This document shows, in pieces, positions 1-41,101 of a DNA stretch of 64,000 bases. The translations under genes and the position numbers were made by a program. The stretch is from an uncultured archaeon (GTDB lineage Archaea; Aenigmatarchaeota; Aenigmatarchaeia; QMZP01): contig CAZCGK010000002.1 of NCBI GenBank assembly GCA_964498245.1, positions 6,133 to 70,132 on the forward strand. The letters are read 5' to 3'. Numbering within the stretch: position 1 is the first letter of the stretch; each line of letters opens with the position of its first letter. The notes below the pieces were generated by a model, which searched no databases, was not told the DNA's origin, and saw only the letters and a program-made list of their open reading frames with translations.

Positions 1-12
1 TATTCACAAAGG

Positions 13-201
13 GTGAAAGAGAACCATGAAATAACAAAAATGATAATTCAGAGAGCACTTTTCTCTACCGATTCTACTATTACACAGGATATAGAGGAAA
101 AGGAGATTGAAGAACTTCTGAAAGAACTCGAAAAGGAAGAAGATGAGGATGTTAAAGAAATAATAAAGGAGATTGAAGATGAAAATAAAAAGGGAGAATG
201 A
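13..201 (+). CDS. hypothetical acidic protein, possibly the 3' part of a gene starting upstream of the window
   Basis: The ORF begins with GTG at 13 and the frame stays open back to position 1. The product is Glu/Lys-rich with no recognisable motif. Confidence 0.25.
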   Translation: MKENHEITKMIIQRALFSTDSTITQDIEEKEIEELLKELEKEEDEDVKEIIKEIEDENKKGE

Positions 202-406
202 CAGAATAATATTACATCTTCACAAAGATCTTTACAAGAGTGATTCCATTGATAAAGCGATAGAAGATTTTGCACACCTTTGTAAAATAAAATCAGGCGA
301 AAACGAAAAGTATTTTTTGATCGAATTTGCAGGGGCAGAGGAATTGGAAGAATTGGTTATGGAGTTTGCAAATTATGTACTATCTCTTTTGAAAATTTCA
401 GGGTGA
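173..406 (+). CDS. small hypothetical protein upstream of the rSAM maturase; possible accessory component (HxsD-like or RRE-like) of the peptide-modification cluster
   Basis: A 77-aa ORF lies 4 nt upstream of the rSAM gene on the same strand. It has no catalytic motifs, so its role is inferred from context only. Confidence 0.3.
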   Translation: MKMKIKRENDRIILHLHKDLYKSDSIDKAIEDFAHLCKIKSGENEKYFLIEFAGAEELEELVMEFANYVLSLLKISG

Positions 407-410
407 GTAA

Positions 411-1820
411 ATGCCAGAAAAATACGGAATACTTCCCTATTCCTCATGTAAAATGAATGATGGTTTTCTGATAACCACAATTACAGGTTCTTGGTGTTAT
501 CTCACCTCTAAGGAATTTGCTATGCTTCAAAAAAAACACATAGAAGCAACACTTTACAGAAAACTTGTTGATAGCGGAATCATCATCACAGAAAAAAATG
601 CCAATGCAATTATAACAGAATACAGGCAGATGAACAGGTTTCTTTTTCAGGGACCTTCACTTCATATAGTGGTTCCAACCTTGAGATGCAATCATGAATG
701 TGTTTACTGTCATGCTAAACCGCCTGATGAAAGATACAGCGATATGGATAAAAAAACGGCAATAAATGTTCTTGATTTTATTTTCAGCACCGAAAGTCCG
801 TGTATAGCAATAGAGTTTCAAGGGGGAGAACCTCTATTAAATTGGGATATGGTAAGGTTCATAATAGATGAAGCTAACAGAATTAACGATGAATACGAAA
901 AAAAGGACCTTGAATTACGTCTTGTAACAAATCTTACCGTGATGGATGATGAAAAACTTGAATTTTTACTGGGTGTGAAGAATGCATATATCTGTACATC
1001 ACTTGATGGTCCGGAGACGGTTCATAACAAGAACAGAAAATATAGAGGAGGTGGTGAGACATACAGCGATGTCGTAAAATGGATTGAAAAAATAAAGGAA
1101 AGGTGTAACAGAATAAATGCAATACCCACAATAACCAGATACTCCCTGCCTTATTGGAGAGAGATAATAGATGAATATGTCAAGCACGGATTTGATACAA
1201 TTCATCTAAGATTTCTCAACAAATTAGGTGCTGCCATGAGAAATTGGAATGAAATTTCATACACACCTGAGGAATTTTTACATTTCTGGAAACAATCTCT
1301 TGAGTATATACTGGAACTTAACAAACAGGGTATAAAACTTAAGGAAAGAACAGCAGAAATAATGCTCACAAAGATTCTGGAAAGAAAAGACCCCGGATAT
1401 ACAGAGCTTATGAGTCCATGTGGTGCAGGAAGAACTCAGCTTCTCTACAACTACAACGGTGATATATATACATGTGATGAGGGTAGAATGCTGGGTAATG
1501 ATCTTTTCAAACTGGGAAATGTGAATAAAAACAAATACAGGGATATTGTAAGAAGCGATAATTTTATTGGTATATGTCATGCATCGATTCTCGATAACTA
1601 TTGCGGAGACTGTGTTTTCAAACCTTACTGCGGAACCTGTCCTGTAATGAACTATGTTGAACAAGGAACGCTCGTACCGAAAATAAGAGAAACGATGAGG
1701 TGCAATATATATAAGGAGCAGTTTTTATATTTATTTAACAAGATAATAAATGATGAAGAAGCTTTAGAAGTATTCAAGGGATGGGTGCATGAAGGAGAAT
1801 GTAAAAAAGAAACTACCTGA
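411..1820 (+). CDS. radical SAM/SPASM-domain peptide maturase-like enzyme (HxsB-like candidate)
   Basis: It has the CNHECVYCH CxxxCxxC motif about 90 aa from the N-terminus, a GGEP motif, and a C-terminal Cys cluster (CGDCVFKPYCGTCP) typical of SPASM/twitch auxiliary clusters. About 90 aa precede the core, which could be an RRE-like recognition domain. Confidence 0.75.
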   Translation: MPEKYGILPYSSCKMNDGFLITTITGSWCYLTSKEFAMLQKKHIEATLYRKLVDSGIIITEKNANAIITEYRQMNRFLFQGPSLHIVVPTLRCNHECVYCHAKPPDERYSDMDKKTAINVLDFIFSTESPCIAIEFQGGEPLLNWDMVRFIIDEANRINDEYEKKDLELRLVTNLTVMDDEKLEFLLGVKNAYICTSLDGPETVHNKNRKYRGGGETYSDVVKWIEKIKERCNRINAIPTITRYSLPYWREIIDEYVKHGFDTIHLRFLNKLGAAMRNWNEISYTPEEFLHFWKQSLEYILELNKQGIKLKERTAEIMLTKILERKDPGYTELMSPCGAGRTQLLYNYNGDIYTCDEGRMLGNDLFKLGNVNKNKYRDIVRSDNFIGICHASILDNYCGDCVFKPYCGTCPVMNYVEQGTLVPKIRETMRCNIYKEQFLYLFNKIINDEEALEVFKGWVHEGECKKETT

Positions 1821-2040
1821 AATAAAAAAAAATATAAAAGATTTTATATCCGATGAAAGTGGTTTTGTTTCCAAGGAGAAGATACTTAAAGCAAGTTTTG
1901 CAGTCGGTTTTGCAACTCTCGCTCTTGTAAATACAGCAGCAGCAGATCATACATCACATACAAACAGCATTTCGGGAAGTTTTTCCGGAAGTACTGTTAC
2001 CGGTTCACATACACATCACGGAAGTCATTCAAGTTACTGA
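1789..2040 (+). CDS. candidate RiPP precursor / His-Xaa-Ser repeat peptide (HxsA-like) with a Sec-type signal segment
   Basis: This 83-aa ORF lies immediately downstream of the rSAM gene and overlaps its stop. It has a Lys-rich N-terminal leader and a hydrophobic stretch ending in AAA|D. The C-terminal core DHTSHTNSISGSFSGSTVTGSHTHHGSHSSY is rich in His-Xaa-Ser/His-Xaa-Xaa triplets. Confidence 0.5.
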   Translation: MKENVKKKLPEIKKNIKDFISDESGFVSKEKILKASFAVGFATLALVNTAAADHTSHTNSISGSFSGSTVTGSHTHHGSHSSY

Positions 2041-2073: not shown

Positions 2074-2883
2074 ATGGTTTCGAAAAGGATAAAAGTGATC
2101 ATAAGTTTGATTGTGGTTGTTTTAATTGCTATATTTGTTCTTTTCACTGTAATGAAAAAACCCGAATTGTACAGCAAAGAAGATATAGAGCTTATAATCG
2201 AGAACAACCTTCCTTATATGAAAGAAATTCTTCTTTCTGAAAACCCAGTTTTTGCAGGATGTATTGCATATTCAACTGATAATATTTCGGTTTGCAATGT
2301 ATTGAAAGGAGACGATGAAAAACAAACCTGTCAAAACGATTATTGTATCTATACACTCCTTTCCCATCAGTGCGAAAAAATAGAAAGAAATCAACAAATA
2401 ATGTCCATAAAACCAACAAGTATAATAGCATATATGGAAGTATGTAGAGCACTCAAATCAAAATCCTGTAAAGATCTTTCTGGTGAGATGAAAAAGATAT
2501 GCGAACTACTTATATCACTTAATGCCCAAGATTGTATTTCATTTCCTGAGCTGAACGTGTCAAAATCCGAGTGTAAGAGTTTAGTGTATCTATATGCTGC
2601 TATTTCAAAAAACGATAGTAGTTACTGTGAAAACATACCAAAATTTTATGAAAGAAATGTATGTATATCCCTTGTATCCAAAGGAGAATGTGAAACGGTT
2701 TTGAATGATATTGCAAGAGATTGGATACGCTTTTCTCTCTCCAGAACCTTGTATAATCATACAGATATCTCTTTATGCGACTCCATAAAATATAAGGAAA
2801 TAAAAAAAGCTTGTAAAGATCCATCGATAATTTATGAGGAAATTATAAGAAACTCCGACAATCTGGTTAAGTTAAATCAGTAA
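2074..2883 (+). CDS. Cys-rich membrane-anchored protein (N-terminal TM helix, about 20 Cys in the ectodomain), hypothetical
   Basis: It has the N-terminal hydrophobic helix VIISLIVVVLIAIFVLFTV and many spaced Cys residues. No catalytic motif is recognisable. Confidence 0.45.
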   Translation: MVSKRIKVIISLIVVVLIAIFVLFTVMKKPELYSKEDIELIIENNLPYMKEILLSENPVFAGCIAYSTDNISVCNVLKGDDEKQTCQNDYCIYTLLSHQCEKIERNQQIMSIKPTSIIAYMEVCRALKSKSCKDLSGEMKKICELLISLNAQDCISFPELNVSKSECKSLVYLYAAISKNDSSYCENIPKFYERNVCISLVSKGECETVLNDIARDWIRFSLSRTLYNHTDISLCDSIKYKEIKKACKDPSIIYEEIIRNSDNLVKLNQ

Positions 2884-2898
2884 TTAAAAATATAAAAT

Positions 2899-3999
2899 AT
2901 GATTCGACCTGAAAACAATCGCATAGATAAATATCTCTTAAGGGAGTATCTGAAAGAGATAGCAAAGGTTGTGAATTTTTATCAAGGTATAGACGATTAT
3001 TCGGAATACATAAAAAACTTTGAAAATATATTCTGCAAATATATCAATGCAAAACATGCCAAAGCGGTAAATTCGGGAACGGATGCCCTGCAGATATCGC
3101 TTATTTCTTTGGGTATAAAAAGGGGAGATGAAGTAATAGTTCCGGACCTTACATACATATCTACCGGACTTGCCGTGATATATTCCGGTGCGAAACCTGT
3201 GTTTGTAGATGTTAAAAAGGAAGATTTAACAGTTGATGAAAACAAACTCGAGAATGCAATAACAGAAAAAACCAAAGCAATAATCCCTGTTCATATGTTC
3301 GGACATCCGTGCAATATGAAAGTTATAGCAGAAATAGCAGAAAAGCATGATCTGAAGATTATAGAGGACTGTTGTCAGGCGTTTTCCTGCAAAATAAACG
3401 AAAGAATGGTAGGAACGTTCGGTGATGCATCTGCTTTCAGTTTTTCTTATTACAAACCGCTTTCCTCCCTATCTGGTAACGGAGGGATGATAGTGTTTAG
3501 AGATTCAGGACTTGCAAGAAGTATAGAAGATTTGATAAAACTCTGGAAATGTAATGATTTGCTAAAGGTGAGCGGTAGAAAATTTCACAAAATCTCTCTT
3601 GTAGATGTAGCAACGATCCTTGTAAAATTGAAAAACTTCAGGTTGATAGAAAAATCCAGAAAAGAAGCCCAAAAACTTTACAGAGAAAATCTGGAAGAGG
3701 TAGAAGAAATTGAAATTCCAAGTGAAAGAAAAGGTAGAGCCTCTATAATGGAGAATTTTGTGATACTCGTCGAAAAGAGGGATAAACTGATAGAATATCT
3801 GAACAGGAAGGGAATAAAAATAGAACATCCCTACAGACCACTACATACCATAAAGATGTTCGGTTACAAAGCAAAACCTCAGGAATTTTCTGTAACAGAG
3901 AGGTATTATCAAAAAGGGCTTCATTTGCCTTTGTACAGTCTCATGAAACCAGAAGAGGTTGAAAAGGTAACAGAAGCTATCATACATTTTTATTCCTAA
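2899..3999 (+). CDS. DegT/DnrJ/EryC1/StrS-family PLP-dependent sugar aminotransferase
   Basis: It has the GTDALQ motif, the small-domain SFSYYKP PLP-lysine region, and a length of about 366 aa typical of the family. Confidence 0.8.
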   Translation: MIRPENNRIDKYLLREYLKEIAKVVNFYQGIDDYSEYIKNFENIFCKYINAKHAKAVNSGTDALQISLISLGIKRGDEVIVPDLTYISTGLAVIYSGAKPVFVDVKKEDLTVDENKLENAITEKTKAIIPVHMFGHPCNMKVIAEIAEKHDLKIIEDCCQAFSCKINERMVGTFGDASAFSFSYYKPLSSLSGNGGMIVFRDSGLARSIEDLIKLWKCNDLLKVSGRKFHKISLVDVATILVKLKNFRLIEKSRKEAQKLYRENLEEVEEIEIPSERKGRASIMENFVILVEKRDKLIEYLNRKGIKIEHPYRPLHTIKMFGYKAKPQEFSVTERYYQKGLHLPLYSLMKPEEVEKVTEAIIHFYS

Positions 4000-5143
4000 G
4001 CCTTTGCAATTTCTTGTCTATTTCCTTATTAAATTTTATTAAAGGACAGTATCTGCATTCTATCCAGAAATCGTTATCCGTATTTATTTCATATTTGTAT
4101 TTAATTCTGGCTTGATGAAATTTATCAGAATTCCATATTTCTATCAATCTATTACGGTATATGTTACCTACCAAAAACTGCTGATGGTTGCAACAAGGAA
4201 ACACATTCCCGTTGATATCTATATGAACATAATACCATCCAGTGTAGCACCTTATATTATTGGAGGCAAGTGTATTCAAATAAAAGAATCTATTATAACA
4301 AGCATTCTCAAATTGCACAGTTTTTCTGTCGCAATTTATAGACCTTTTAATAATATCAAGCACTTCATATAAGTTTGTTCTGTATTTATATTCTCTTTGA
4401 GCTTTCAACAATTTCTCTATTAACAATTTTAATTCTTTCATTTCCTTAGGTGAAAGTATTAGTGAAGATGTATCGCTATTAGCTTGCATGAGTTTGAACT
4501 CTACATATTCTATACCAAATTTTGAACATATTTTGAGCATTTTGTCTATATCTTTGAAATTATACTTGTTCAAGATGTATACAATATGAACAACAGGTTT
4601 ATTCAGTTTTAATTTATTCTTGCTTTTAATTTCATAGAGAAACTTCAAATTTTTTAAAACCCTGTAAAACATTTTATCAGAGCCACCTGCTTGTAGAAAC
4701 CCGTGTTTTTTTGGTGAAACTGCAGAAAGATTTACCCTTATTAAATCAATTTCTAGCATATGTTTCAAATGCTTAGGATGAATGCTGAGATTTGTATCTA
4801 TCATTACCCTTATGTCACTTTTCTTTGCATATTTTATCATCTTAAAAATATCTGGATGCAGAGTAGGTTCTCCCTCTCCTAAAATAGATATCTGCTCCAC
4901 TCCCATGATACGGGAATCATCCACAATTTCTTTAAATTTTTCAAAAGGAAGTGCTTTTTTCTTTTTGCTTTTTTTGACAAATTTCGAATGATACCAGCAA
5001 AATACACATTTGAAATTGCAGAATGAATTTACATGGAGCTTTACGCATCTAGGTCCTACAAAAACCTTATCCAGATATGCACCAAGAAGCCTTAGACTTT
5101 CTGGGGATGCATTATATTTTTGATACCTTTCTATAAACTCCAT
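3980..5143 (-). CDS. radical SAM protein with a C-terminal SPASM/twitch-like Cys cluster
   Basis: It has the CNFKCVFCW CxxxCxxC motif and a GEGEP motif. The C-terminal Cys motifs CCNHQ...CRYCP are SPASM/twitch-like. Confidence 0.75.
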   Translation of the reverse strand: MEFIERYQKYNASPESLRLLGAYLDKVFVGPRCVKLHVNSFCNFKCVFCWYHSKFVKKSKKKKALPFEKFKEIVDDSRIMGVEQISILGEGEPTLHPDIFKMIKYAKKSDIRVMIDTNLSIHPKHLKHMLEIDLIRVNLSAVSPKKHGFLQAGGSDKMFYRVLKNLKFLYEIKSKNKLKLNKPVVHIVYILNKYNFKDIDKMLKICSKFGIEYVEFKLMQANSDTSSLILSPKEMKELKLLIEKLLKAQREYKYRTNLYEVLDIIKRSINCDRKTVQFENACYNRFFYLNTLASNNIRCYTGWYYVHIDINGNVFPCCNHQQFLVGNIYRNRLIEIWNSDKFHQARIKYKYEINTDNDFWIECRYCPLIKFNKEIDKKLQRLRNKNV

Positions 5144-6185
5144 ACCACTCCCTTATTTCTCTTTCAGGATTGAAATGCTTTTTAACAGTCATATATCCAT
5201 TCTGTCCAAGGGAATACATTTTTTCTCTGTTATTGTAAATTTCAATTAGTTTTTCATATATTTCTTCACCAGAAAACGGCTCAACAAGCAGACCGTTGTA
5301 TTCGTGTTTTATTATCTCTTCTGTTCCGCCAACCCTTGTGGCTATCACGGGAATGCCAAGAGACATCGCTTCAAGAACCGCATTGGGAAAACCCTCAAAC
5401 AGAGAGACCTGCACATAAACATCAAACATCTGCATCTCCTTCAAAACATCTTCATGTTTCATCACACCTTTTATTACAATTTTGTGTTTGATACCGGTTT
5501 TTTCCACGGCTTTTAAAAAATTAGAATTATCCGTTTTGCTTGCTCCGATCAGGACAAGTCTAGAATCCGGAATCTTGCTTGCAAATACTTTAAATGCATC
5601 CAAAAGATATTTCCAGCCTTTCAGCTTTCTTATATCACCTAAATATGAAACGTTTCCCACGATGAATTCTTTGCTTCTTTTTCTCTTACAATTTGGAATT
5701 TCAACGGAATTGTTTATAACTTCTGTTCGGGTTTTTCTTCCTGTAATTTTTTCAAATATCTTTAGATGCATTTTGCTAACAGAAACAATATATTTAGCAT
5801 TTTTTGCGACAATGTTACAAACATCAGAAATGGTGTTTAAAATATGGGAACCTCTCAAACCCACGATTGAGGGTTTGTCCAATAGGGAAGCTGCCTTTAC
5901 AGCAATCAAACCATCCGGCTCTATATCAAAACCGTGAATCACATCAAAATCCAATCTCTCATCAAGCCTTTTAATCACCTCAACAGCATTGTTTTCGAAA
6001 TGATTTAGTCTGTAGATAAAAACTCTATTGTTCTTCTGAAATTTGCTTCCACCCCTTCCGGTTATAATATGAAATTCGATTCCTTTGTATCTCTTTACCA
6101 TTCCGTTTACAATCCTTTTTAGCGATACGCTCCTTCCACCAAGTGGTTGCGTGCTGAAATCATTGGAGATGATGCATATTCTCAT
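5112..6185 (-). CDS. glycosyltransferase family 4 (GT-B, retaining)
   Basis: The C-terminal EGFPNAVLEAMSLGIPVIAT E-x7-E motif is typical of GT4. Confidence 0.8.
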   Translation of the reverse strand: MRICIISNDFSTQPLGGRSVSLKRIVNGMVKRYKGIEFHIITGRGGSKFQKNNRVFIYRLNHFENNAVEVIKRLDERLDFDVIHGFDIEPDGLIAVKAASLLDKPSIVGLRGSHILNTISDVCNIVAKNAKYIVSVSKMHLKIFEKITGRKTRTEVINNSVEIPNCKRKRSKEFIVGNVSYLGDIRKLKGWKYLLDAFKVFASKIPDSRLVLIGASKTDNSNFLKAVEKTGIKHKIVIKGVMKHEDVLKEMQMFDVYVQVSLFEGFPNAVLEAMSLGIPVIATRVGGTEEIIKHEYNGLLVEPFSGEEIYEKLIEIYNNREKMYSLGQNGYMTVKKHFNPEREIREWYGVYRKVSKI

Positions 6186-6916
6186 TTTATTCCTCCTGCT
6201 TCGCTCAGCCTTAGAAACTCTGCACCAGTTTTTAGCAAGTACTTCAAAAATATTGCAAGATTTTTGAACCCGTCTGCATCAAAGACATGATGATGCATGT
6301 ATATGCCTATTACAGGCATGGTTTCTCTAAGTAAAATGAATTTTGCTATCACATCTCTGATATTTGAATTTTCCAGACAAAGCGATACCGGTACAAAGGA
6401 AAAACCATATTTTTTCATATCGAATTTTGCTGGTTTTTTGGCTGAGAATATTTTGAAGCCCAGAATATCAACAGCCTTTAAAGTGTTCTCATCATATTTA
6501 TGGTATGGCGGTGTGAATGCAGGTATGAAGTCCCTCTTAAAAAAATTTTCCATAATCTCTTTGCCCCTTTCTATCTCCTCTCTCTGTTTTTCATAAATCC
6601 TTCCGAAGAATTCAAACTTTATCATTTCACTGCCGTAATTCTTATGTATGTATCCATGCTGACCATATTCTATCAGCTCAGGATTTTCTTCCTTAATCCA
6701 CCTGAGCCTTTTTGCAGATTCCTCTGTAAGTTTTCCCGGTATTACAGCATGGTGAATTGGTATTTTCTTTTTGATAAAAATTCTGGATAGTGTCATAAAC
6801 TTTTTGTCTGCATCAAACACATCATCATTTCTAAAAAACACCTTGATCGTGTCCATTTCATTCACATATTTTTTTAAGTCCACGATACAAATTCTCGAGA
6901 CCATTATACCATTCAT
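6182..6916 (-). CDS. putative polysaccharide deacetylase-like protein (divergent)
   Basis: It has FRNDDV and HGYIH motifs reminiscent of a NodB-type metal site. The assignment is tentative. Confidence 0.4.
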   Translation of the reverse strand: MNGIMVSRICIVDLKKYVNEMDTIKVFFRNDDVFDADKKFMTLSRIFIKKKIPIHHAVIPGKLTEESAKRLRWIKEENPELIEYGQHGYIHKNYGSEMIKFEFFGRIYEKQREEIERGKEIMENFFKRDFIPAFTPPYHKYDENTLKAVDILGFKIFSAKKPAKFDMKKYGFSFVPVSLCLENSNIRDVIAKFILLRETMPVIGIYMHHHVFDADGFKNLAIFLKYLLKTGAEFLRLSEAGGIK

Positions 6917-8003
6917 TTTTTATCTTTACATGCATATTTTTCTCAATCTGCTTTTTTATTTCCTCAGCTATTTTCTCAGGTGAAAGTTTATCATATCTTA
7001 TCACAGAGGAACCTAACAAATCCTTCATCATTCTTGCACGGGATACCTGCTCCATCTCTTTCATATAGGGAATGAGCACGGCTTTTTTTCTAAACCACAT
7101 TGTTTCAACAGATGTATTGTAACCGCACATGCTTACGGACACATCGCACATACTCAAATAATCTGTAAACTCTGCATTCGGAAGAAAGCTGAAGGTTTTT
7201 ACATTTTTGAATCCTTTTGAAAGTTTATCAAATATATTTATCTCTTTTTTGGTAGATGCAGGACCATAGCATACAAACATGAAATATTCATTTCCCAAAA
7301 ACCTCAGAGACATTATAGATTTTGCTATTATACCGGGATAAACCACACCACCACCTCTACTCACAAGTACAATCTTCTTATGCATTTCACGCTTGATTTT
7401 TTTCTTTTCTTTCTCTGAAAACACATAACCTGTGAAGATAATCTTTCCTTTCAATTTTCTAAAAAAATTGACATATTCCTCTGCTTTCTCTTTTAATGCT
7501 ACTTTCATATATTCGTATTCAATTTCTGGTGTATGAATAAAAAGCCTGTCAAAGCCTTTAGAATATTCAAGTATTTCTTCTGTTCTGTTCAAATCTAACG
7601 CAGGATATCCTATGGATGCGCATATCTTGGTTTCGGGCATGGTTTTTCTCATCCAGAGGATGAAGGGATAAAGCTCATACTTCCCTTCGGATCTTCCGAA
7701 GGGAAAAAACTCTGTTAAGAAAAGATCCGGTTTGAACCTTTTCACAATGCTTTTCATGATAAAAAGCCTTTTTCTTATTTTTCCCGTATCCAAGGGCATT
7801 CCAGCTCTGTAAAACTCCCTTCTATCCCGGAGCGGATAAGGAAGGTTCACAATCTCTATATCCGAAAAATCCACATCCTGCTTCTTTCCGCCGTTGAGAA
7901 TGAGAATTTGAGTTCCTTTGCTTTGCAAACACCTCGCTATTCTCAGTGTTCTTGTGGTATGTCCCAGGGTTTCCCTGTGAGTATAATACATCATTATTTT
8001 CAT
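6858..8003 (-). CDS. GT-B fold glycosyltransferase (GT1/GT28-like)
   Basis: It has a two-domain size of about 380 aa and the N-terminal YYTHRETLGHTTR motif. It is translationally coupled to the flanking genes. Confidence 0.5.
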   Translation of the reverse strand: MKIMMYYTHRETLGHTTRTLRIARCLQSKGTQILILNGGKKQDVDFSDIEIVNLPYPLRDRREFYRAGMPLDTGKIRKRLFIMKSIVKRFKPDLFLTEFFPFGRSEGKYELYPFILWMRKTMPETKICASIGYPALDLNRTEEILEYSKGFDRLFIHTPEIEYEYMKVALKEKAEEYVNFFRKLKGKIIFTGYVFSEKEKKKIKREMHKKIVLVSRGGGVVYPGIIAKSIMSLRFLGNEYFMFVCYGPASTKKEINIFDKLSKGFKNVKTFSFLPNAEFTDYLSMCDVSVSMCGYNTSVETMWFRKKAVLIPYMKEMEQVSRARMMKDLLGSSVIRYDKLSPEKIAEEIKKQIEKNMHVKIKNEWYNGLENLYRGLKKICE

Positions 8004-8959
8004 ATAATATCCCTATTGCAGCCTTTCAAAAAACCATGATAGGATAGGCATTTCGGACATTTTCCCTTTAGTGCTTTTTCGATCACAGCTTTTCTCTTTC
8101 CTTCCTCTACAATTCCGGTATGGATGTTACCTACAGGGTCCTGATAAAGACAGGGAAAAATATTACCTCGGGAATCGATAAATAGGGATGTTTTTGGTGT
8201 GAGGCACTTTTTTATAAAATTCAGGTCTGGGTTTTCTGTAAACTTCACAAGTTGCACAATCCATAAATTGTTTTTACCCTTGTATTTATCCTTTAGAATT
8301 TTTAACAGATCTATTTTGGTGTGTTTCAGTTCTCTTCGAGAAAGCTGTATAATCTTGGTTTCTTTTATACGATGATAATACCTGCTTAAATACTCACCAA
8401 ATTTAGGTTCGAAAAAACAACCAAGTTTTTTAGCTAATTCATAAATACTGTAAAGATCCTTATAATTAAGCTTGGTTATTACTGTTTTTATCGAAATCGG
8501 TATAAAAGGATATCTCCTTTTTATCATTCGAATGGTTTTTACTGTTTTTTGAAATGCATTATTCATACCGCGCTGAAGATTATGGGTCTCCTTTAAACCG
8601 TCAAGGCTTATCCCAAATTCCGTACCATGAAGAATAGCTTTACTGTTTTTCAGAAATTCAAGGATTTTTTCTGTGGCATAACCATTTGTCGTAATGTTTA
8701 TAGATATTACCCTTTTCTTGATATATAAAAAATAGAGATATCTGTATATTTTTTCAAATTCCGGGTGAAGAAAACACTCACCTCCTGTGAGAGAGATAGA
8801 AAGCCTGTTTTCAAATTTGCTGACAAAACTCAAAATATTCACCAAATCCAGATCATTTATTTCCCTTTCCTTCCATATACTGCACATTCTACATTTAAGA
8901 TTACATCTATTGGTTATTTCAAATGTAAGGTTTTTTACATCCTCTAAACATTTACTCAT
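8000..8959 (-). CDS. radical SAM protein with a SPASM/twitch-like C-terminal Cys cluster
   Basis: It has a CNLKCRMCS CxxxCxxC motif near the N-terminus and C-terminal CLYQ...CPKCLSY cysteines. Confidence 0.7.
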   Translation of the reverse strand: MSKCLEDVKNLTFEITNRCNLKCRMCSIWKEREINDLDLVNILSFVSKFENRLSISLTGGECFLHPEFEKIYRYLYFLYIKKRVISINITTNGYATEKILEFLKNSKAILHGTEFGISLDGLKETHNLQRGMNNAFQKTVKTIRMIKRRYPFIPISIKTVITKLNYKDLYSIYELAKKLGCFFEPKFGEYLSRYYHRIKETKIIQLSRRELKHTKIDLLKILKDKYKGKNNLWIVQLVKFTENPDLNFIKKCLTPKTSLFIDSRGNIFPCLYQDPVGNIHTGIVEEGKRKAVIEKALKGKCPKCLSYHGFLKGCNRDII

Positions 8960-10272
8960 TCCACCACCAGCGGATCCTCTGCATAATAGCTACCAAAAAC
9001 CTTTTTTGCCATGGTTCTGCTCCCACCTTTGCATACAGGATAGATTTCGCATACTTTACATCTTTCAGGAAGATACTCAAGATTCCTCAGTTTTTTCATT
9101 AGAGTGCTGTTCCATGCAGCATTTATATTTTTCCACGTACCTGCAACATCATCCGAATAATAAACAGGTTTCACATCACCGTTTACAGATATTACCATTC
9201 TATCCCTTCCATCATCCATAAAACCACCCAGGGAAAACACTCGTGCAGTAAAACCTTCTCCAAGAAAACAAAACGGAAAAGCGTTTGTTATCACACTTCG
9301 TGTTCCAAATTTTTCGTAAAATTTTAATGAATGATTGAAAAAGGAACAGAGAGACTTTTTTTCAGCCTCCGCATGAATTAATCGATAGTTTTCATGAACG
9401 AGCCCGAGCTTTTTCTTGATAAGAAGAAATATATCGAAAAGCGAATCACGATTTTTTTCATTGATAACAGTCCCTGCTCTCAGAAATATCCGAGGATTGA
9501 TTCTTTTTATTTTCAGAACGGTTTTGAGCTTATTTTTGAAACTGTAAGGATTTCCTGTGATTTTGGCTTCCCCTTTGGGTGTAGAGTGATGAAGAGGAAT
9601 GAGAACAGAATCTGTATGTTTTATTATATCAGTGTAATGTTTGTTATCCGTAAATGTTCCGTTGGAATTTATCCATACCTCCATTTTAAGTGATTTTGCA
9701 TATTTAACATAGTTGTATAAATTTGAATCCATAAAAGGTTCTCCGCCGGTGAATCTTATTCTCCTGATACCCATTTTATATGCTTGATTTATTACCGAAA
9801 AAACCACTTCCGAATCTATGAATTCATAATCATGTTTTGGAGAAAAACAAAAAAAGCAATTAAGATTGCATTTTGATGTTATCTCTATTGAAATTTCTTT
9901 AGGCAGATCCTTTACCGGCTCTGGGTTATTAGAAAAATCTTCTGGAAAACCTGCACAAAATCTGTTGAATTTACACTCTTTACACTGTGGAGATTTTGTT
10001 TTGTGGTTGCTCGATATATTTATTATATGCTCTTCTGCATCAGGGAGTATGCAGTAGGGAAGGTTAAAGAATATCATGCTCGTTTTTTCTTCAAATCTAT
10101 TAATGAGTGTATAAAGTACGGACCTGATTTTGAAAAAATCAGGAGGATTCTTGCTATCAAAGATTACATCAACCAGAGGTATATTTCGAGTTTCAAGCAG
10201 CTTGATTAAAGAGATGAGATTTTTCACATTTTTTTTGTTTATTTGCAGTGTGAGTTTTTCGGAATTCAGCAT
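8956..10272 (-). CDS. radical SAM/SPASM protein with an N-terminal extension of about 130 aa
   Basis: It has a CNLNCFFCF CxxxCxxC motif, a GGEP motif, and a C-terminal CKVCEIYPVCKGG cluster. Its N-terminal extension contains a CKECKFNRFC motif. Confidence 0.7.
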   Translation of the reverse strand: MLNSEKLTLQINKKNVKNLISLIKLLETRNIPLVDVIFDSKNPPDFFKIRSVLYTLINRFEEKTSMIFFNLPYCILPDAEEHIINISSNHKTKSPQCKECKFNRFCAGFPEDFSNNPEPVKDLPKEISIEITSKCNLNCFFCFSPKHDYEFIDSEVVFSVINQAYKMGIRRIRFTGGEPFMDSNLYNYVKYAKSLKMEVWINSNGTFTDNKHYTDIIKHTDSVLIPLHHSTPKGEAKITGNPYSFKNKLKTVLKIKRINPRIFLRAGTVINEKNRDSLFDIFLLIKKKLGLVHENYRLIHAEAEKKSLCSFFNHSLKFYEKFGTRSVITNAFPFCFLGEGFTARVFSLGGFMDDGRDRMVISVNGDVKPVYYSDDVAGTWKNINAAWNSTLMKKLRNLEYLPERCKVCEIYPVCKGGSRTMAKKVFGSYYAEDPLVVE

Positions 10273-10329: not shown

Positions 10330-13300
10330 ATGAAACAGGTGACCATTTCACTAATTGTTTGCATATTTTCCTTCCTGATTCTTCTGCAACTGAGCGCTGC
10401 AGAAACTCTGACTTGTTATATAAAAGACCCTTCAGGAACTGCTATACGAAGCAGTCAAACTACCTTTGGATTCTATACAAGTGCAACATATACATGTTCA
10501 GCATCATGCCCTTCTTCGGATTCTTCATGTTGCCAGAAAGAAGGACAATACACTTGGCAGGTGGTTTCAAGTTATGACGGAAGCACAGTTTCAGGAAATG
10601 CATACTATGTCAACTGGGATGGTTCCTCTACCTGGTGCTCTTGTCATGGTGATACTTGGGTAAGCAGCGTTTCCAAGTGCTGTGGTGATGATGGTTCAGC
10701 TGATGATTGGTGTGCTGGTGGATATACAAGTTGTTATGATGGTGTTTACTATACAGATGGTGATTCAAATTCCTATACATGTTCCTGTGGCGGAGGTTAT
10801 TGGAACATAGGTGGTGAAGTTGCTGGAAGTTCTTGTTGCGGTGATGATTCAGGAGAGTACAGAAGAACACGCCAGGCTGGAACAGATTCCACATATTCAT
10901 CCGATTCTAACGATGATGCGTGTTGCAATGCAAACAACAAATGTGTATATAATTCTGTATGTTACGCTTCTACTTCAACGTTAGGCTCGATACCCAATAA
11001 GAATTACTGTGATAACGGTGTTTGGGTAGGCGGAGATGCTTCTGAAACAGCCTGCACAGCAATTGCTGGTTCAGGAAGGTGGAGTATAGGCGGAGAAGTG
11101 GCTGCCACAACATGCTGTGGTGATGATTCTGGTGAAAATTACAGGATATGCCAAGATAATAATGAAGGATATTGCGCCAGATCGAGTGATAATACTGCAT
11201 GTTGCGATTCACAATATGATTGTGTATTTGATGATACATGCTATTCTTCTGGAACTGTGCAAGGACAGTGGAGGTGCGAATCCGGGACATGGCATGATTT
11301 TATACCACCTGTTACAACGGATGATGCAACCAGTACATGGACGAATACGGATCAAATAGTCACATTAACCTGTGATGATGATGCAGGTTCAGGCTGTGAT
11401 ACAGTCAGATACTGTATAGGTTCAAATACATGCACTCCAGAAATAACAGAATATGATATTTCAAGTGGTTCTTACAAGGTCTCTGTGACATGCCCAGCCG
11501 GTTCGGTATGCAAACAGTATGTAAGATACCAGTCAAAGGATAAGGCAGGAAACTGGGAAGATATTAAAACCTCAGCAGAAACGAGAATAGATAAAGAAAA
11601 ACCAACAACTTCCATAAAACTTTCCGGAGTCGAAGGGGATAATGGCTGGTATGTATCTGATGTTACGGTGACACTTTCTTGTGATGACGGTAGCGGTTCA
11701 GGCTGTAGTGAGACTTACTATTGTGTGGACCAATCTGATTCCTGTACACCAAGCGTGAAATACACAGGACCATTTTTAATTTCAAATGAAGATATAAACT
11801 ATGTTCGATATCATTCAAAGGATAATGTTGGGAATGTAGAAGATGTTAAATCCACCGAAGTCAAAATAGATAAGACACCACCAACAGCATGGATAAACCC
11901 TCTTCCTGAATGGACGAATTCAAGTGATGGTTCTGGTGATGTATATTTTGATGTATACTGGAATGGAGATGATGGACCTACCGGTTCAGGAATAACGAGT
12001 TACAGCATTCAGTATATAATATACAACAGAGCAACTGGAAATTATGTCACAAATAACTGCGGAACAGCTGATTGGTGTGATTGGATTACAAGGGATGAAA
12101 CAGATCCGAAACAGGAAATATTTGGTCTTCTGGACAATCCCGAAAATGTAGAGGCATTCAACAATCACACATTTCTTTTCAGAATAAGTGCAAAGGATAA
12201 TGCAGGAAATGTAATGGATTATTCTATAAACCCACCCTGGGAAAATACATCTATCGATGTGGTTTCTCCTGTAAGCGCAATATCTACTGTATCCTATCCA
12301 GGAGAACTCATAGTAGAGGCTTTCTGGCAGGGTTGGGATAATGAATCAGGAGTAGCATACTATGATGTTCAAAGCAATATGAGCGGCTCTTGGGATTATC
12401 TCACAGATACAGACGGAAACAGTACATATCATACTACAAAAACTTCAGGTAATTTCAGTGTTTCATCCGATGGAATTTACTATTTCAGGGTAAGAGCAGT
12501 AGATAGAGCAGGAAATGTAGAAACCCCCTGGAAATACAGCTCGGTTCTTGTGGATGTTTCACCTCCTGTTGCTTGGATGGAAGAGCCCTATAATGAATGG
12601 ATGAAATTTTATAATTTCACTGTAAATTGGTCCGGATACGATACAGGTAGTCCACCTTCTGGAATCAAATGTTACGATGTTCAGTGGAGTAATGATACGA
12701 TAAACTGGAACTATATCCAATACAATGAATTTGGTGATTTGACAGAGTGTGTACTTCTAACGGAAACCATATTCGGCCTTTACGGATTTACTGATTTAAA
12801 AGATGGCATTACATACTATTTCAGAGTTAGAGCTACAGACAATAATGGAAATATCGGTAACTGGAGTGTGAAAAACACAACAATAGATACGTATTCTCCC
12901 GTTATTATAGTTAACGTAACAGACGATAAAGGAAGAGAGATAATAGAAGGCTATGTTCCAGCAGATGTAAAAAACATTACCATAACCTCAATGGCATGGG
13001 ACAACATTTCAGGTATAAAAAAGCATACCATTCACTATTGGCTCACTCAAAACAACAAATACACATACGGTGAAAAGGAATGCGGCGAAGCACTACCATG
13101 GGGAGATTGGAGTAACTGTTCCATAACCTTTGCTTATGATGAAGACACGGTGATCAAATATTATGTGAAGGCAGAGGACAGAGCAGGAAATGTAAATACA
13201 ACACCGATAAGGTTTACAACCTCTCACCCCCTTGCAAATTTTGTAATTCACCAGGCAGCTATCGGTTTGGGAGATTCAATTCTTCTTAAAGTTCAGGTGA

Positions 13301-13662
13301 GAAACATCCAAGAAACCGTGGACAATATAACCATATCCATTGAAAGCACGATCACCTCAGCAAAACCAAAATTTGAAAATATAGGCTCTGGAGATTTTGA
13401 AATTCAGGCAGACGGAAAGGTCTTACAAGTTTATAACTTAAATCCAATGGAAGAAAGAGAATTTTTTGTGAGAATATATTCCAGCGAGATAGGGACCTAT
13501 TATCTGAACATGACAGCTCAATCAAACGTTGCACAGCCGGGTCTTATTGATACAGACAGTGCAAAAATAATTATCGGTTATCCCCCTTCATTCCCCGGTC
13601 TTGCACCATGGAGTATTCTCCTGCTTGTAATACTTTCGGTTACGATTTTCTTAATTATTTAA
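10330..13662 (+). CDS. large secreted Cys-rich surface protein with Ig-like repeats and a C-terminal PGL+TM sorting-like tail
   Basis: It has a signal peptide and N-terminal about 330 aa with repeated CCGDDSGE/CCGDDGS Cys motifs. These are followed by repeated (F/Y)R(V/I)(R/S)A(x)D(x)AGN(V/I) Ig-like/FN3-like modules. The C-terminus is PSFPGLAPWSILLLVILSVTIFLII. Confidence 0.65.
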   Translation: MKQVTISLIVCIFSFLILLQLSAAETLTCYIKDPSGTAIRSSQTTFGFYTSATYTCSASCPSSDSSCCQKEGQYTWQVVSSYDGSTVSGNAYYVNWDGSSTWCSCHGDTWVSSVSKCCGDDGSADDWCAGGYTSCYDGVYYTDGDSNSYTCSCGGGYWNIGGEVAGSSCCGDDSGEYRRTRQAGTDSTYSSDSNDDACCNANNKCVYNSVCYASTSTLGSIPNKNYCDNGVWVGGDASETACTAIAGSGRWSIGGEVAATTCCGDDSGENYRICQDNNEGYCARSSDNTACCDSQYDCVFDDTCYSSGTVQGQWRCESGTWHDFIPPVTTDDATSTWTNTDQIVTLTCDDDAGSGCDTVRYCIGSNTCTPEITEYDISSGSYKVSVTCPAGSVCKQYVRYQSKDKAGNWEDIKTSAETRIDKEKPTTSIKLSGVEGDNGWYVSDVTVTLSCDDGSGSGCSETYYCVDQSDSCTPSVKYTGPFLISNEDINYVRYHSKDNVGNVEDVKSTEVKIDKTPPTAWINPLPEWTNSSDGSGDVYFDVYWNGDDGPTGSGITSYSIQYIIYNRATGNYVTNNCGTADWCDWITRDETDPKQEIFGLLDNPENVEAFNNHTFLFRISAKDNAGNVMDYSINPPWENTSIDVVSPVSAISTVSYPGELIVEAFWQGWDNESGVAYYDVQSNMSGSWDYLTDTDGNSTYHTTKTSGNFSVSSDGIYYFRVRAVDRAGNVETPWKYSSVLVDVSPPVAWMEEPYNEWMKFYNFTVNWSGYDTGSPPSGIKCYDVQWSNDTINWNYIQYNEFGDLTECVLLTETIFGLYGFTDLKDGITYYFRVRATDNNGNIGNWSVKNTTIDTYSPVIIVNVTDDKGREIIEGYVPADVKNITITSMAWDNISGIKKHTIHYWLTQNNKYTYGEKECGEALPWGDWSNCSITFAYDEDTVIKYYVKAEDRAGNVNTTPIRFTTSHPLANFVIHQAAIGLGDSILLKVQVRNIQETVDNITISIESTITSAKPKFENIGSGDFEIQADGKVLQVYNLNPMEEREFFVRIYSSEIGTYYLNMTAQSNVAQPGLIDTDSAKIIIGYPPSFPGLAPWSILLLVILSVTIFLII

Positions 13663-20513: not shown

Positions 20514-21344
20514 TTATTTATTTTTTCCAGCATACCAGAGAGCTGCTGAAATAACAGCGGTTATTATAAGAATTATTATTGAGGATGAATACGGACCATT
20601 AATTATATTACTGACCGCACCTATCATTCCTGTGATGGTGTTTTCTGGGTTCTCTATATCAATCGGTTCTCTTCTGTCTGATTGCTCCTCTCTGTCCCTC
20701 CTGACCGGTTTATTCTTCACACTTCTCTCAATTTCTGATGATGTATTATCATTCAAGCCAACTGAAAAATTCTCTGCATTTATATAAGTATTGCTTTTTT
20801 CTGCATTTTCCTGATAAATTCCTGTAATATTCTGGTCTCCCATTACATTAACTTCAAATTTAAAGCTTCTTAACTGAGAGGTTGTCAGTATGTTTTCAGG
20901 ACCCTTTACCACTGCAGATAATCTTATATAATACTTCCCTGGTTCTATGTTTTGCGGTGTTTTGACCATAACCCTGACCACTCTTGCTTTGATATCACCA
21001 TGACCCGTTCCGAGAAACTCGTATCCTTCCTCCAGTTCTGAACTTCCAGGCTCTGAATAAGGGAGATAGAAGTTTTTTGGGGTTATTGTTATGTTAAACC
21101 CCTTTGGCAACTCTGTAACATTCATGCTGACATATATTCCAGGTTTTTCATGAATGTTGAAAAGGAGTATTTTGAAGCTTGTTACATCCCCTGGCAGAAT
21201 ATCTATAGATTTCTTTCCATAAGCACTACCAAGAGGTATCACTGCATGGATATTCTGTATTGATAGAATCAAGAAGAATACTAACATTACCAAAAATATC
21301 ACTGCATATCTTCCGTTTAAGTTCACTTTATGGTTCTTCACCAC
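20514..21344 (-). CDS. secreted protein with a C-terminal membrane anchor, hypothetical
   Basis: It has a signal peptide and a C-terminal TM helix. Confidence 0.45.
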   Translation of the reverse strand: MVKNHKVNLNGRYAVIFLVMLVFFLILSIQNIHAVIPLGSAYGKKSIDILPGDVTSFKILLFNIHEKPGIYVSMNVTELPKGFNITITPKNFYLPYSEPGSSELEEGYEFLGTGHGDIKARVVRVMVKTPQNIEPGKYYIRLSAVVKGPENILTTSQLRSFKFEVNVMGDQNITGIYQENAEKSNTYINAENFSVGLNDNTSSEIERSVKNKPVRRDREEQSDRREPIDIENPENTITGMIGAVSNIINGPYSSSIIILIITAVISAALWYAGKNK

Positions 21345-24300
21345 TTTCCACCCCTTCTATATATAGAGTTCCGGTATAGTTATCCGCAGTTATTCCGAAC
21401 GGAATATCTATCCAGTAGTACATGGTTACATTTGTGGATGGCGAAACGGCCTCTTTGAGCAGATTCCAGGAATAACCCAGTCTGTAACCACTGCTGTATT
21501 CATTCGTTGCATTATTCCATGTTATGTTTCCAACCTGAATATAATAATTATCGTTTAATGATCTGTTCAGGTCTGTTCCCTTTATATAAAGATCAACATT
21601 ACATGTTGTTACGGACTCCACTGTAATGTTGTAGTTGTCATTGACATTCCCAGGAGCTGAATTGTTGGTTGTTCCTGGTTGGAGGTTTCCAAAATCTATA
21701 CTATCCCACTGAAGGGTTATGTCAAGAATACAGGACACTATCTGAATGGTATTATTATCTGTGGTGTTATCATCCAGATATGACATGTTTGATTCAAGAA
21801 GCGCGCCGATTTTGTAGCTCGATCCTATGGTGCCTGTAGCATTCACATTCCATACCAGTTCACAGTATTCATCCTTGTCCAAAGGATTTCCGGAGCAGTT
21901 CTGGGGATTGGGATTGTCCGTAATGTAAAAAGGAGTGTCACCTTCAGTTGTGCTTATATCCGTGTCAGGATTACTTGATGTGGAGTTGTATCTGATTCTG
22001 CCTGTTACATTTCCGCAGTAACCCTTTCTACAGTAGACAGTCACGTTTACCAAGAATGTTGTGTTCTGTGCAACATTTTTCTGATCTACAGGCTCCACAA
22101 GCATGACCTCGAGATAGCCCTGTTTTATTGTTATAGAATCATTTGCGCTGAGGGGCTCATAATCCTGTACAGATCCGTTGCAGGTAACATTCCAGGAATA
22201 GAAACCACCCAGGGAGAAAGACCTGTTGTATTCATAAAGAAGGCTGGAGGAATTGAATGTCATGTTGAAGGGACCGTATGGACTTACATTGAAGGATATC
22301 TCACAGTAAACCCCTGATCCATTGATAGGCTCTCCGGAGGTCAGGTTGGTGTAGTTCGCAAAGAATGTAACATTCTCGTTCACATAAACCGTCCTGGATC
22401 CACCTTCAGGATCTGTTTGATCCCATATACTCAGATTGGAATTTGCTGAGGAGGAATAATTGGTGAAATGGGTTACGTTGAATGAAAGGGTTCCAGAGGA
22501 ATAGCTTGTTATAACGCAGTCAGGAGGATTGCATATTTTCCCATCCCTTAATATTACAGGGGTGTGGAGATAGCTTAAACCATAAAATGTGATGTTTGCA
22601 GAGGTATTGAATGTGTCATTCAGGTTTGCAGAATCCACATCCACGAAATTATATCCGAAGGTTATGTAGGTATCAAAATCCGCCCAGCTTGCATTCACGC
22701 AACCGTACCACACAATCCTGAACACGCCCACCTTTCCTAACAAGGGCTGGCACACATTGGTTATATCCTCCACACTCTCAAAGTCTGTGGTTTCAGGATC
22801 ATCGAAGTTTGCATAGGATGGGGAGGGGAATCTTATTGAGAGGCTTCTCTTTTCAGATTCCTTTTCGTTTGCACCATCAGAGCATGTTATCCACCACTCG
22901 TAATCCCCATCAGCAAGAGTTTCATTCACCTGAATGGTTGTTGAGCTATCATTCAGAGCATTCACCGTTCCATAGGGTTTAGGTATTCCGGTTCCTGTAT
23001 CCGTTCTGTTGAGGAAAATCTCGCAGCTCAGGGTTGATGCCCTGTCATCACTGGTATTAAATATGAACTTTGGCACTCTTGTAGTTGTATTTATTGTATT
23101 GTTTGGAGGATATTCAAGATTTACACTTGGCGAGGTCGAATCAATTATAAGGGTTCTGTTTGTATCAGACCAGTCCTCATTCCCTGATGTATCATTGCAG
23201 TACACTCCCCATTTCCATTCTCCTTCAGGAATGCCACTAACGGTTACATACCATACTGTATTGTTTATCGGGCTTGAATTGGTCTGGTTTGCTGACCACA
23301 CACCAGACCAGTCTGACCAGAGCTGGAGATAATCGGGCTGAACATCATCCCAGCACTTTAGTTCGAATGTAATTGTGGACGAAGAGGAGATGTAGTTATC
23401 AGGCGGGTTCGTTCCGAACTTTGCCACAGGTGGGCTGGCATCGGATAGATATGCAAATATTACATCTATGTATGGAGGGAGGTTACTTTCGTTGCTGAAC
23501 GATACGGTTACGTTATGGTTGTGATACTCGTCTGCTACGCTTACCTGCTGTCCTATCGACCTTCCCCTGTCCCAGCTATCAGATGCCCAACTTACTGATA
23601 TGACAAGGTTGTCATGTGTGTGATTTTCCGATCCTCCGGTTGCTCCGTATGCTGTTGAACCAACTATGAACCTCTTGTAGAAATCCCCTCCAGGATTGGA
23701 CATCACTATCCAGTTGGAGGGTGGTGTGCCATCGAACATTCCTATCAGGCCTGTAGGTATTTCTGTATCAGATTCTGCCTTCGCAAGGGTGACATTTATA
23801 AACGGAGGTCTGTGATCTGCTGTGCTTGTTGGTCCTCCAGAACCTGTGTGGGTATGATCACTGATTGCTGCATCTGTCGAATATACCTCAGTACCCACTG
23901 TCCCTTTCGCTATGCTGAGCGTTATCTTCACTGTAGAATGGTAGTGTGTATTATTACCTCCTGTGGATATGCTCGCGTTGCCCATGACAAAATATCCATC
24001 CTGTGCTATGTATAAACTCCAGCCAGGGGGAATGCTCTCATTGAATATTGCTATGGCCCCTGCAGGTATGGTTGTCGGGATTCCGCTGTCATACACTATC
24101 ACCTTCAGGCTTCTGTAAGAGGGCAGGGATGTTGCGTTTGAAACCGAATAGGAACTTATGCCTCCATGGGTGTGGTTTGCGCTTGATGGGTGAGACTCAG
24201 TACCTTCCCTTGCTGATAACGTATCCACACATGCAGTTTCGTTTACGTAAATCACGGCATGTGTGTGTGTCTCAGAACCACCTGTTGCTCCATATTTCTC

Positions 24301-33835: not shown

Positions 33836-33975
33836 GCCGGTGTAGCTCAGCGGTTAGGTTGAAACCACGTGAAGAGCGCCAGACTCATAACATGAAGTGC
33901 AAAGGTTATGAGTGTTGAGGGTTTTAAACCCTGTGAGAAATCTGGAGGTCGCGGGTTCAAATCCCGCCACCGGCA
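33836..33975 (+). tRNA. tRNA-Met/Ile2 (anticodon CAT) with two introns (D-loop and 37/38)
   Basis: Manual fold: acceptor GCCGGTG/CACCGGC, D stem GCTC/GAGC interrupted by a 16-nt insert, anticodon stem CCAGA/TCTGG with loop CTCATA[about 50-nt intron]A, T arm GCGGG-TTCAAAT-CCCGC, discriminator A. G1-C72 argues for an elongator. Confidence 0.65.
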
Positions 33976-40920: not shown

Positions 40921-40962
40921 ATATCCCAACATCCCAGAATATGTATGTACACATTCTGGGAG

Positions 40963-41035
40963 TGGGCCGGGCAGGATTCGAACCTGCGACCCCCGCCACG
41001 TCAAGGCGGTGTCATAACCACTAGACCACCGGCCC
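40963..41035 (-). tRNA. tRNA-Val (anticodon GAC)
   Basis: It folds as a canonical 73-nt cloverleaf with no intron and no encoded CCA. Confidence 0.85.
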
Positions 41036-41101
41036 ATTGGGAAGTTTTAGTTTTATCATATTTATAAATATAGTGATCTGCTCTTAAAGAAGTAAAATTC
41101 A

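Follow-up and report, generated by a model that had tools for sequence, protein, structure and literature searches.

We analysed a 64,000-nucleotide (nt) stretch of archaeal DNA (contig CAZCGK010000002.1 of assembly GCA_964498245.1; hereafter, the window), whose left end carries a gene for an HxsB radical SAM (rSAM) peptide maturase between genes for a small HxsD-like protein and for a peptide with a His/Ser-rich tail. An initial annotation had described these three open reading frames (ORFs; 173-406, 411-1820, and 1789-2040) as a His-Xaa-Ser (HXS) system. All three are present at those positions and are genes of one cassette, but the system is larger and is cut by the window edge: the operon is truncated there, since a fusion gene and a homologue of A24 prepilin-type peptidases sit upstream on a public metagenome contig, L001 (k141_164527, 143.7 kb), which carries identical DNA and from which we took the upstream flank (window position = L001 position minus 9590). 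The features of the locus, with amino acid (aa) positions and profile scores, are as follows:

L001:4572-5645, ~5 kb upstream of the window start: A24 prepilin-type peptidase homologue, with an archaeal C-terminal domain and a GDAKL motif.
Window 1-201 (+), L001:8292-9791: 3′ end (last 66 codons and stop) of a gene for a 499-aa rSAM::HxsD fusion, which starts outside the window.
Window 179-406 (+): HxsD-like small protein, a second and shorter HxsD paralogue (NF038315 HxsD_rel, 67.1 bits; cutoff 41).
Window 411-1820 (+): HxsB rSAM/SPASM peptide maturase, 469 aa (TIGR03978, 459.7 bits; cutoff 370).
Window 411-650 (+): N-terminal domain of HxsB, aa 1-80, resembling a recognition element (RRE) of ribosomally synthesized and post-translationally modified peptides (RiPPs) in an AlphaFold2 (AF2) model.
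Window 669-1130 (+): rSAM core of HxsB, aa 87-240 (Pfam Radical_SAM).
Window 1419-1703 (+): SPASM domain of HxsB, aa 337-431 (Pfam SPASM).
Window 1789-2040 (+): HxsA3-like precursor peptide, 83 aa (NF038309 HxsA3, 42.2 bits, E 5e-11; cutoff 65).
Window 1789-1890 (+): leader of the precursor, aa 1-34, which holds all 10 Lys/Arg of the peptide.
Window 1891-1944 (+): apolar segment of the precursor, SFAVGFATLALVNTAAA, aa 35-52, ending AAA.
Window 1945-2037 (+): His/Ser core of the precursor, DHTSHTNSISGSFSGSTVTGSHTHHGSHSSY, aa 53-83, ending HTH-HGS-HSS-Y.
Window 2074-2883 (+): Cys-rich protein, 269 aa, with 15 Cys and an N-terminal transmembrane segment (iterative hidden Markov model (HMM) search).

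Gene order on the contig runs from the A24 peptidase, across intervening genes, to the rSAM::HxsD fusion, the HxsD-like protein, HxsB, the 83-aa precursor, and the Cys-rich membrane protein. We consider it probable that this is an HXS peptide-maturation cassette of the HxsA3/HxsD-like subtype, which is found in DPANN archaea and candidate-phyla bacteria, and that it works by the mechanism proposed below.

The 469-aa protein had initially been described as a SPASM-type rSAM enzyme with an N-terminal extension, and this description holds: it scores above the NCBI trusted cutoff for HxsB, residues 10-459 align to positions 4-466 of the 466-position TIGR03978 profile, and the extension is ~85 aa long. 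The CxxxCxxC motif is present at C93/C97/C100, with the catalytic Cys invariant, and the SPASM domain has the full set of seven cysteines (C337, C355, C398, C401, C407, C410, and C431); the rSAM and SPASM cysteines are conserved over 31 homologues. The AF2 model of HxsB is confident (predicted local distance difference test (pLDDT) score of 89.8) and places strands at residues 10-15, 18-23, and 28-32, followed by helices at 33-40, 46-55, and 64-74 (pLDDT 80-97). As modelled, the first ~75 residues have the layout of an RRE, three strands then three helices, and are predicted to bind a leader peptide. The best solved fold in a Foldseek search was CteB (5wgg; E 8e-23, end-to-end), followed by anSME, TigE, ChlB, and SuiB. 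HxsB shares its RRE-rSAM-SPASM build with the sactipeptide synthase CteB. Common to HxsB and to CteB (the SCIFF thioether synthase), PapB, and SuiB are the three-domain build, the CxxxCxxC motif with a SPASM domain of seven Cys, and a neighbouring gene for a peptide with a leader. However, CteB and anSME are ~20% identical to HxsB, with SuiB lower, and thioether chemistry is excluded because the core of the substrate is Cys-free.

In a neighbour-joining tree, the window HxsB fell inside a clade in which almost all labels are archaeal (DPANN phyla). A second clade, made up mostly of candidate-phyla bacteria, stands apart from it, and canonical HxsB is distant from the two; identity of the window protein to the Aeromonas HxsB is 36.9% over 98% of the length. 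A 2.5-kb contig binned as “Spirochaetes bacterium” (RKX96853.1; locus tag DRP54_09730) encodes an HxsB and an HxsD-like protein that are 93% and 88% identical to those of the window, and is probably misbinned, given the archaeal context of its window counterpart. Fourteen viral or prophage relatives of HxsB on IMG/VR contigs (L089-L102) are 28-38% identical, and none lies near the window clade.

At least 582 HxsB relatives came up in a scan that took one genome for each species, and we analysed the best 80 loci (39-50% identity). These are labelled Woese-, Nano-, Aenigmat-, Nanohalo-, and Iainarchaeota, as well as Patescibacteria, Omnitrophota, Elusimicrobia, and Myxococcota/Bdellovibrio. The sets behind our counts differ in size: 80 loci from the genome scan, 81 for the count of HxsA-like ORFs, and 85 for counts of neighbours. 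ORF calling and profile searches gave a recurrent core of HxsD (125-200 aa), an HxsD-like protein (~61-89 aa), HxsB, and an HxsA-like ORF. The first three are retained in most of the 80 loci, with the HxsD-like homologue directly upstream of HxsB, and the HxsA-like ORF is found in 60 of 81 (a short peptide of ≤150 aa in 50). HXS genes in an archaeon, as initially annotated, are real but not new: NCBI and JGI have already annotated HxsB in many DPANN archaeal bins.

The precursor, MKENVKKKLPEIKKNIKDFISDESGFVSKEKILKA-SFAVGFATLALVNTAAA-DHTSHTNSISGSFSGSTVTGSHTHHGSHSSY (leader, apolar segment, and tail), has the sequence and the parts that had been reported for it, namely a Lys-rich N-terminus (10 Lys/Arg in residues 1-34), an apolar stretch, and a 31-aa tail. 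The coupling of its gene to the rSAM gene was likewise borne out, since the peptide ATG lies 32 nt within the 3′ end of the HxsB gene; some relatives have a like overlap (e.g., L003 and L005), and no gene intervenes between HxsB and the precursor. The tail contains 6 His (19%) and 10 Ser, with HxxH spacing, no Lys or Arg, and an isoelectric point (pI) of 6.6. Compared with the long ORFs of the window (1.7% His and 7.0% Ser), the enrichment has a binomial P of ~1e-5 for His and ~3e-5 for Ser. To call this tail “dominated” by His-Xaa-Ser triplets was slightly generous: it is His/Ser-rich, and the nine residues that lead up to its terminal Tyr fall into three units in register (HTH-HGS-HSS), but there are three strict H-x-S triplets.

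Profile searches on the three ORFs placed HxsB and the HxsD-like protein above cutoff, whilst the peptide matched HxsA3 and HxsA4 (25.4 bits, E 2e-5) and no other profile, in both cases below cutoff. We ascribe the low scores to its having only three repeat units; the alignment covers 74 of the 81 positions of NF038309. An HMM built from 52 homologues derived from the related loci, the window peptide included, matched the precursor at 83.6 bits (E 3e-25) and no other ORF of the window. Related loci thus keep the peptide gene, and the 52 aligned peptides share a leader (LPxIKKxIxxF[LI]xxEEGKISK), an apolar segment, and an H-x-S tail. Leader residues K13, F19, L20, E23, and G25 are at least 90% conserved, and the three most conserved His columns, also at least 90%, are H74, H77, and H80 of the window peptide. 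The findings named in the initial annotation as refuting it (no similarity of the 469-aa protein to SPASM maturases, or orthologous loci that lack the peptide ORF or a conserved His/Ser core) were thus not obtained. HxsA3 was matched by 46 of the 52 and HxsA4 by 38 (E ≤ 1e-3). The C-terminal residue is Tyr or Trp in 36, typically in SH[SG]S[YW], and a small-x-small site follows the apolar segment in 51 (strict AxA in 28). Relatives have as many as 19 HGS/HSS units, and the array of the window peptide is short for the family.

The small ORF upstream of HxsB had been suggested to be an accessory component, which agrees with its HxsD_rel score. It encodes 75 aa from ATG 179 (public gene calls) or 77 aa from TTG 173, ends with a stop codon 4 nt ahead of the HxsB start, and is the sole ORF of its kind in the window; against the TIGR03976 HxsD profile it scores 22 bits (cutoff 50). 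Its AF2 model, made from the single sequence (pLDDT 71.6), has the order strand-strand-helix-strand-strand-helix. A database search returned a single relative, and a Foldseek search of the PDB gave nothing below E 0.38.

The second HxsD is encoded by the upstream gene, the 3′ end of which overlaps the HxsD-like gene and the part of which inside the window corresponds to the acidic C-terminal tail of the HxsD portion only. Residues 1-335 of the fusion are an rSAM enzyme (Radical_SAM profile at 15-162) and residues ~357-460 a full HxsD domain, which scores 41.3 bits against TIGR03976 at 374-458 (cutoff 50), has a precomputed match to Pfam PF27806 HxsD, and is 38-49% identical in alignment to stand-alone HxsD proteins. 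We observed the fusion on this single contig. All 28 close homologues of its rSAM part (E ≤ 1e-49) are stand-alone proteins of 287-362 aa that cover only the first two-thirds, and in three fetched contexts such an rSAM gene adjoins a DegT aminotransferase gene within a glycan cluster. On these grounds the fusion is probably a local event, in which the HxsD domain is the cassette part and the rSAM part a neighbour captured by fusion. We considered the upstream rSAM as a replacement for HxsC and set this aside, given its stand-alone, DegT- and glycan-linked homologues; against the TIGR03977 HxsC profile the fusion scores 42 bits, the generic rSAM level. The fusion may be a hint from nature at a role of HxsD proteins as rSAM adaptors, by analogy with the E. 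coli HxsD, which is reported to bind HxsC, or it may be a local accident, with an internal Met of the ORF that could start HxsD separately.

A gene for an asparagine-synthase-like amidotransferase (L001:6893-8302) shares 11 nt with the start of the fusion gene. This family includes lasso-peptide and macrolactam cyclases, and relatives of the gene lie near cassettes in L083 and L084. As a cassette component we rejected it: its relatives form a four-locus cluster (L001 and L083-L085) and are missing from the 80 genome-scan loci.

The Cys-rich protein encoded downstream of the precursor belongs to a divergent family, with 31 relatives among 1.84 billion representative proteins and no match to any Pfam or NCBIfam model. 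Homologues occur in 22 loci, from archaeal and bacterial bins, and in 20 of these the gene is directly beside that for HxsA. This membrane protein is probably a further component of the cassette. The A24 homologue on the contig scores 27.9 bits against Arc_PepC (cutoff 23.4), with a weak full-length match to EppA, and lies 4.3 kb from HxsB, with three genes between, and 2.6 kb from the start of the fusion gene. Homologues with an intact GDxKL motif are found within 6 kb in 30 of 85 loci (25 of the 35 archaeal loci), in most cases as the gene next upstream of HxsD and on its strand; in L046, the gene ends 32 nt before HxsB.

Our literature search returned a single functional study of HXS, on the canonical system, and no account of the HxsA3/HxsD-like subtype. 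The function of the family had been called unknown in the initial annotation, which is outdated, as the E. coli HxsD-HxsB-HxsC-HxsA system protects broadly against phages by keeping their DNA from entering the cell (Li et al., Nat Commun 2026, PMC13128918). In that system, the ~214-aa HxsA combines a signal peptide with five basic HxS repeats and a domain that binds peptidoglycan; its N-terminal processing depends on each of HxsB, HxsC, and HxsD, and it undergoes a +8 Da change at SHRSS of the last HxS repeat (PMC13128918). HxsC is essential, binds HxsD, and is modelled as the installer of the modification, which could not be reconstituted in that study, given the insolubility of HxsA and the need for three maturation proteins (PMC13128918). 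Of the systems found via HxsA, 99.7% are from Pseudomonadota, and archaea are not mentioned (PMC13128918).

Compared with canonical HxsABCD (TIGR03976-03979), the archaeal locus has in common an HxsB orthologue, HxsD-family small proteins encoded directly upstream, a substrate with in-register H-x-S units encoded downstream (exported, by prediction in the archaeal case), and a last-repeat motif, SHSSY, that resembles the modified SHRSS of E. coli. In contrast to the canonical system, it lacks HxsC, has two HxsD paralogues instead of one, and adds the Cys-rich membrane protein and the A24 peptidase, in a host without peptidoglycan or periplasm. The substrates also differ. The canonical one is ~190-214 aa long with Arg-rich repeats, and in Aeromonas carries HRSHRSHSSHRSHSSHRSH (pI 11.6) and a C-terminal wall-binding region, whereas the archaeal one has 83 aa, with a conserved 34-aa leader and a neutral core (pI 6.6). 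The TIGR03979 HxsA profile gave no match to the precursor at E ≤ 0.1, nor did any Pfam domain, and it has no peptidoglycan-binding domain. The initial assignment to an HxsA/HxsB-like system was thus right as to HxsB, but with neither HxsC nor a peptidoglycan-binding HxsA the locus belongs with the subtype defined by NCBIfam HxsA3 (NF038309), HxsA4 (NF038313), and HxsD-like (NF038315) rather than with the canonical system. It resembles this subtype in an HxsD-like protein above cutoff and in a peptide whose two best matches are HxsA3 and HxsA4, and departs from it in that the peptide, with three repeat units only, is below both cutoffs.

We propose that the RRE-like domain of HxsB would bind the leader in the cytoplasm, with the two HxsD-type proteins assisting. 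HxsB would then use radical chemistry to alter the C-terminal H-x-S units covalently, most likely at the conserved terminal S-H-S-S-Y, in parallel with the +8 Da change noted above. The positive-inside leader and the apolar segment are predicted to place the tail outside the cell, where a signal-peptidase-type cut after AAA (residue 52), the site given in the initial annotation, would free a 31-aa peptide; otherwise, the tail would stay anchored in the membrane. The adjoining Cys-rich membrane protein is a candidate partner or anchor. The choice of cleavage is suggested by the aligned peptides. Small-x-small or AxA sites are common, but the class III motif ([KRDE][GA] right before the apolar run) is rare, being found in 3 of 52 peptides and not in that of the window, which argues for the signal-peptidase-type release. 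In 35 of 52 peptides a looser motif, [KR]-x-[GAS], stands ahead of the apolar run (K-A-S in that of the window), and the A24 linkage may be a lead to keep beside the favoured release. With archaeal class III processing (EppA, FlaK, and PibD) the locus shares a linked A24 homologue with GDxKL and a substrate with a charged N-terminus and then an apolar helix, but the HXS leader far exceeds the usual length and most of the peptides lack the standard cleavage motif.

Several observations weigh against this reading. HxsC was not found in the window and the upstream flank: the best TIGR03977 scores are 67.3 (8956-10272) and 60.8 (8000-8959), for a cutoff of 267.9, and phmmer with the Aeromonas HxsC gave no match on this contig (some relatives have an extra short HxsC-like or PapB-like rSAM beside HxsB). 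The peptide reaches 42 bits where HxsA3 requires 65, its core has neither the Lys/Arg nor the pI of the canonical repeats (6.6 vs. 11.6) and no peptidoglycan-binding domain accompanies it, and the 34-aa leader ahead of the apolar segment is long for a Sec signal. The chemistry and expression of the subtype are, moreover, predictions.

As to function, the most likely role is an envelope-level barrier to virus entry, as for bacterial HXS, which we put forward tentatively and by homology only, and which may well prove wrong. With a neutral core, no wall anchor, and no HxsC, the electrostatic DNA-trapping model of E. coli is not directly transferable. The main alternative, which the initial annotation had put forward beside a signalling role, is a metal-binding peptide: once modified and exported, the His/Ser/Gly tail would chelate Ni, Zn, Cu, or Fe at the cell surface and so help to take up, buffer, or detoxify the metal. 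The His content and HxxH spacing of a core free of basic residues, and the long HGS/HSS arrays of relatives, are in keeping with this idea; neutral His repeats suit metal coordination better than DNA binding, and the family is frequent among nutrient-scavenging symbionts with small genomes. However, the 85 loci show no consistent neighbour that is a transporter, a metallochaperone, or a metal-regulated gene, and the sole HxS-repeat protein tested experimentally acts in phage defence; we regard a metal-binding function as a serious alternative, though an unlikely one. A distinct, HxsC-free system of DPANN archaea and candidate phyla, with five to six genes (A24 peptidase, HxsD, HxsD-like, HxsB, HxS peptide, and Cys-rich partner) we judge somewhat unlikely. 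Here, HxsB alone would modify the peptide, the prepilin-type peptidase would remove the leader, and the tail would stand on the surface of ultra-small episymbionts as an antiviral barrier or a device for host contact or metal capture. If this were true, the rSAM::HxsD fusion, seen once, would count as evidence from nature that HxsD proteins serve rSAM enzymes as adaptor subunits.

Another proposal is that of a pilin-like or membrane-anchored surface peptide, from which the A24 peptidase removes the 34-aa leader while the apolar helix is retained and the HxS tail displayed on the surface or on a filament. The frequent A24 linkage, above all in archaeal loci, speaks for it, as do the Arc_PepC score of the contig copy, its weak full-length EppA match, and the looser motif in 35 of 52 peptides. 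Yet a correctly placed classical class III motif is confined to 3 of 52, the conserved AxA-type site that follows the apolar segment points to signal peptidase I, and the peptidase on this contig is separated from HxsB by three genes and 4.3 kb (2.6 kb from the fusion-gene start); in a few loci a housekeeping RNase P subunit adjoins the peptidase, so that part of the linkage could be inherited synteny. This proposal thus seems to us distinctly improbable. It is very improbable that the peptide is a substrate or component of a glycan pathway, with its Ser/Thr-rich tail O-glycosylated via the neighbouring DegT aminotransferase, glycosyltransferases, and rSAM enzymes. The closest relatives do have the cassette beside DegT (with GT28 and an rSAM of the 340-aa type in L002, L083, and L084, and with DegT only in L010), and on this contig that rSAM type is fused to HxsD. 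However, the DegT linkage is limited to one small sub-clade (6 of 85 loci with cassette and DegT; 2 DegT loci have no cassette in the available flank), the glycan genes of L082 occur with no Hxs genes in the available flank, and the fusion is found on a single contig, where an internal Met could start HxsD separately.

The locus, a pared-down relative of the bacterial system in an archaeon with a small genome, adds to a subtype that is recognised by NCBI models and labelled by annotation pipelines but uncharacterised in the literature searched; as genome annotation it is unsurprising, since HxsB is already named in many DPANN bins. Its interest lies in offering a much smaller test case for HXS modification chemistry: an 83-aa precursor with three repeat units, a single dedicated rSAM enzyme, and two small partners (HxsD and HxsD-like). 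Should the antiviral role carry over, it would mean that DPANN archaea, about whose immune repertoire little is known, have a defence at the level of the envelope. Should it fail to do so, the neutral core and the missing wall anchor would point to a second use of HxS-repeat peptides.

The host is an archaeon, as evidenced by an intron-containing tRNA and archaeal marker genes (S_layer_C, PTH2, prefoldin, and L18e in the window, and Nop5 just upstream); its placement within DPANN is suggested by the labels of the nearest HxsB relatives alone. The tRNA gene (window 33836-33975, +; 140 nt) matches the full 71-position Rfam model with an implied intron of ~69 nt, and was overlooked by ARAGORN in its default bacterial mode. 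A tandem pair of tRNA-Val genes (anticodons GAC and CAC; spacing 66 nt) lies at 40962-41174 (-). Scans for promoters, terminators, and tandem repeats were uninformative for archaeal DNA, and PADLOC, which contains no HXS model, returned generic viperin-type rSAM matches only.

Downstream of the cassette, window 2899-10272 encodes on both strands a DegT-type aminotransferase, an rSAM/SPASM protein, a GT4 glycosyltransferase, a DUF2334/deacetylase-like protein, a GT28-type transferase, and two further rSAM enzymes. Much of this gene set is found again in L082, and its DegT, GT28, and 340-aa-type rSAM genes adjoin Hxs cassettes in L002, L083, and L084; several rSAM genes also flank many other DPANN and candidate-phyla Hxs loci. 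The ENA contig k141_164527, which matches the left part of the window, stops near window 27676, and a separate Logan contig of 14.4 kb corresponds to the right part; the window thus derives from another, longer assembly. Two long ORFs may encode surface proteins: one of 1110 aa (10330-13662, +), with an OmpL47-type beta-barrel domain (90 bits) and otherwise unannotated, and one of 1707 aa (21328-26451, -), for which the public assembly calls a 2115-aa gene that reaches the contig end.

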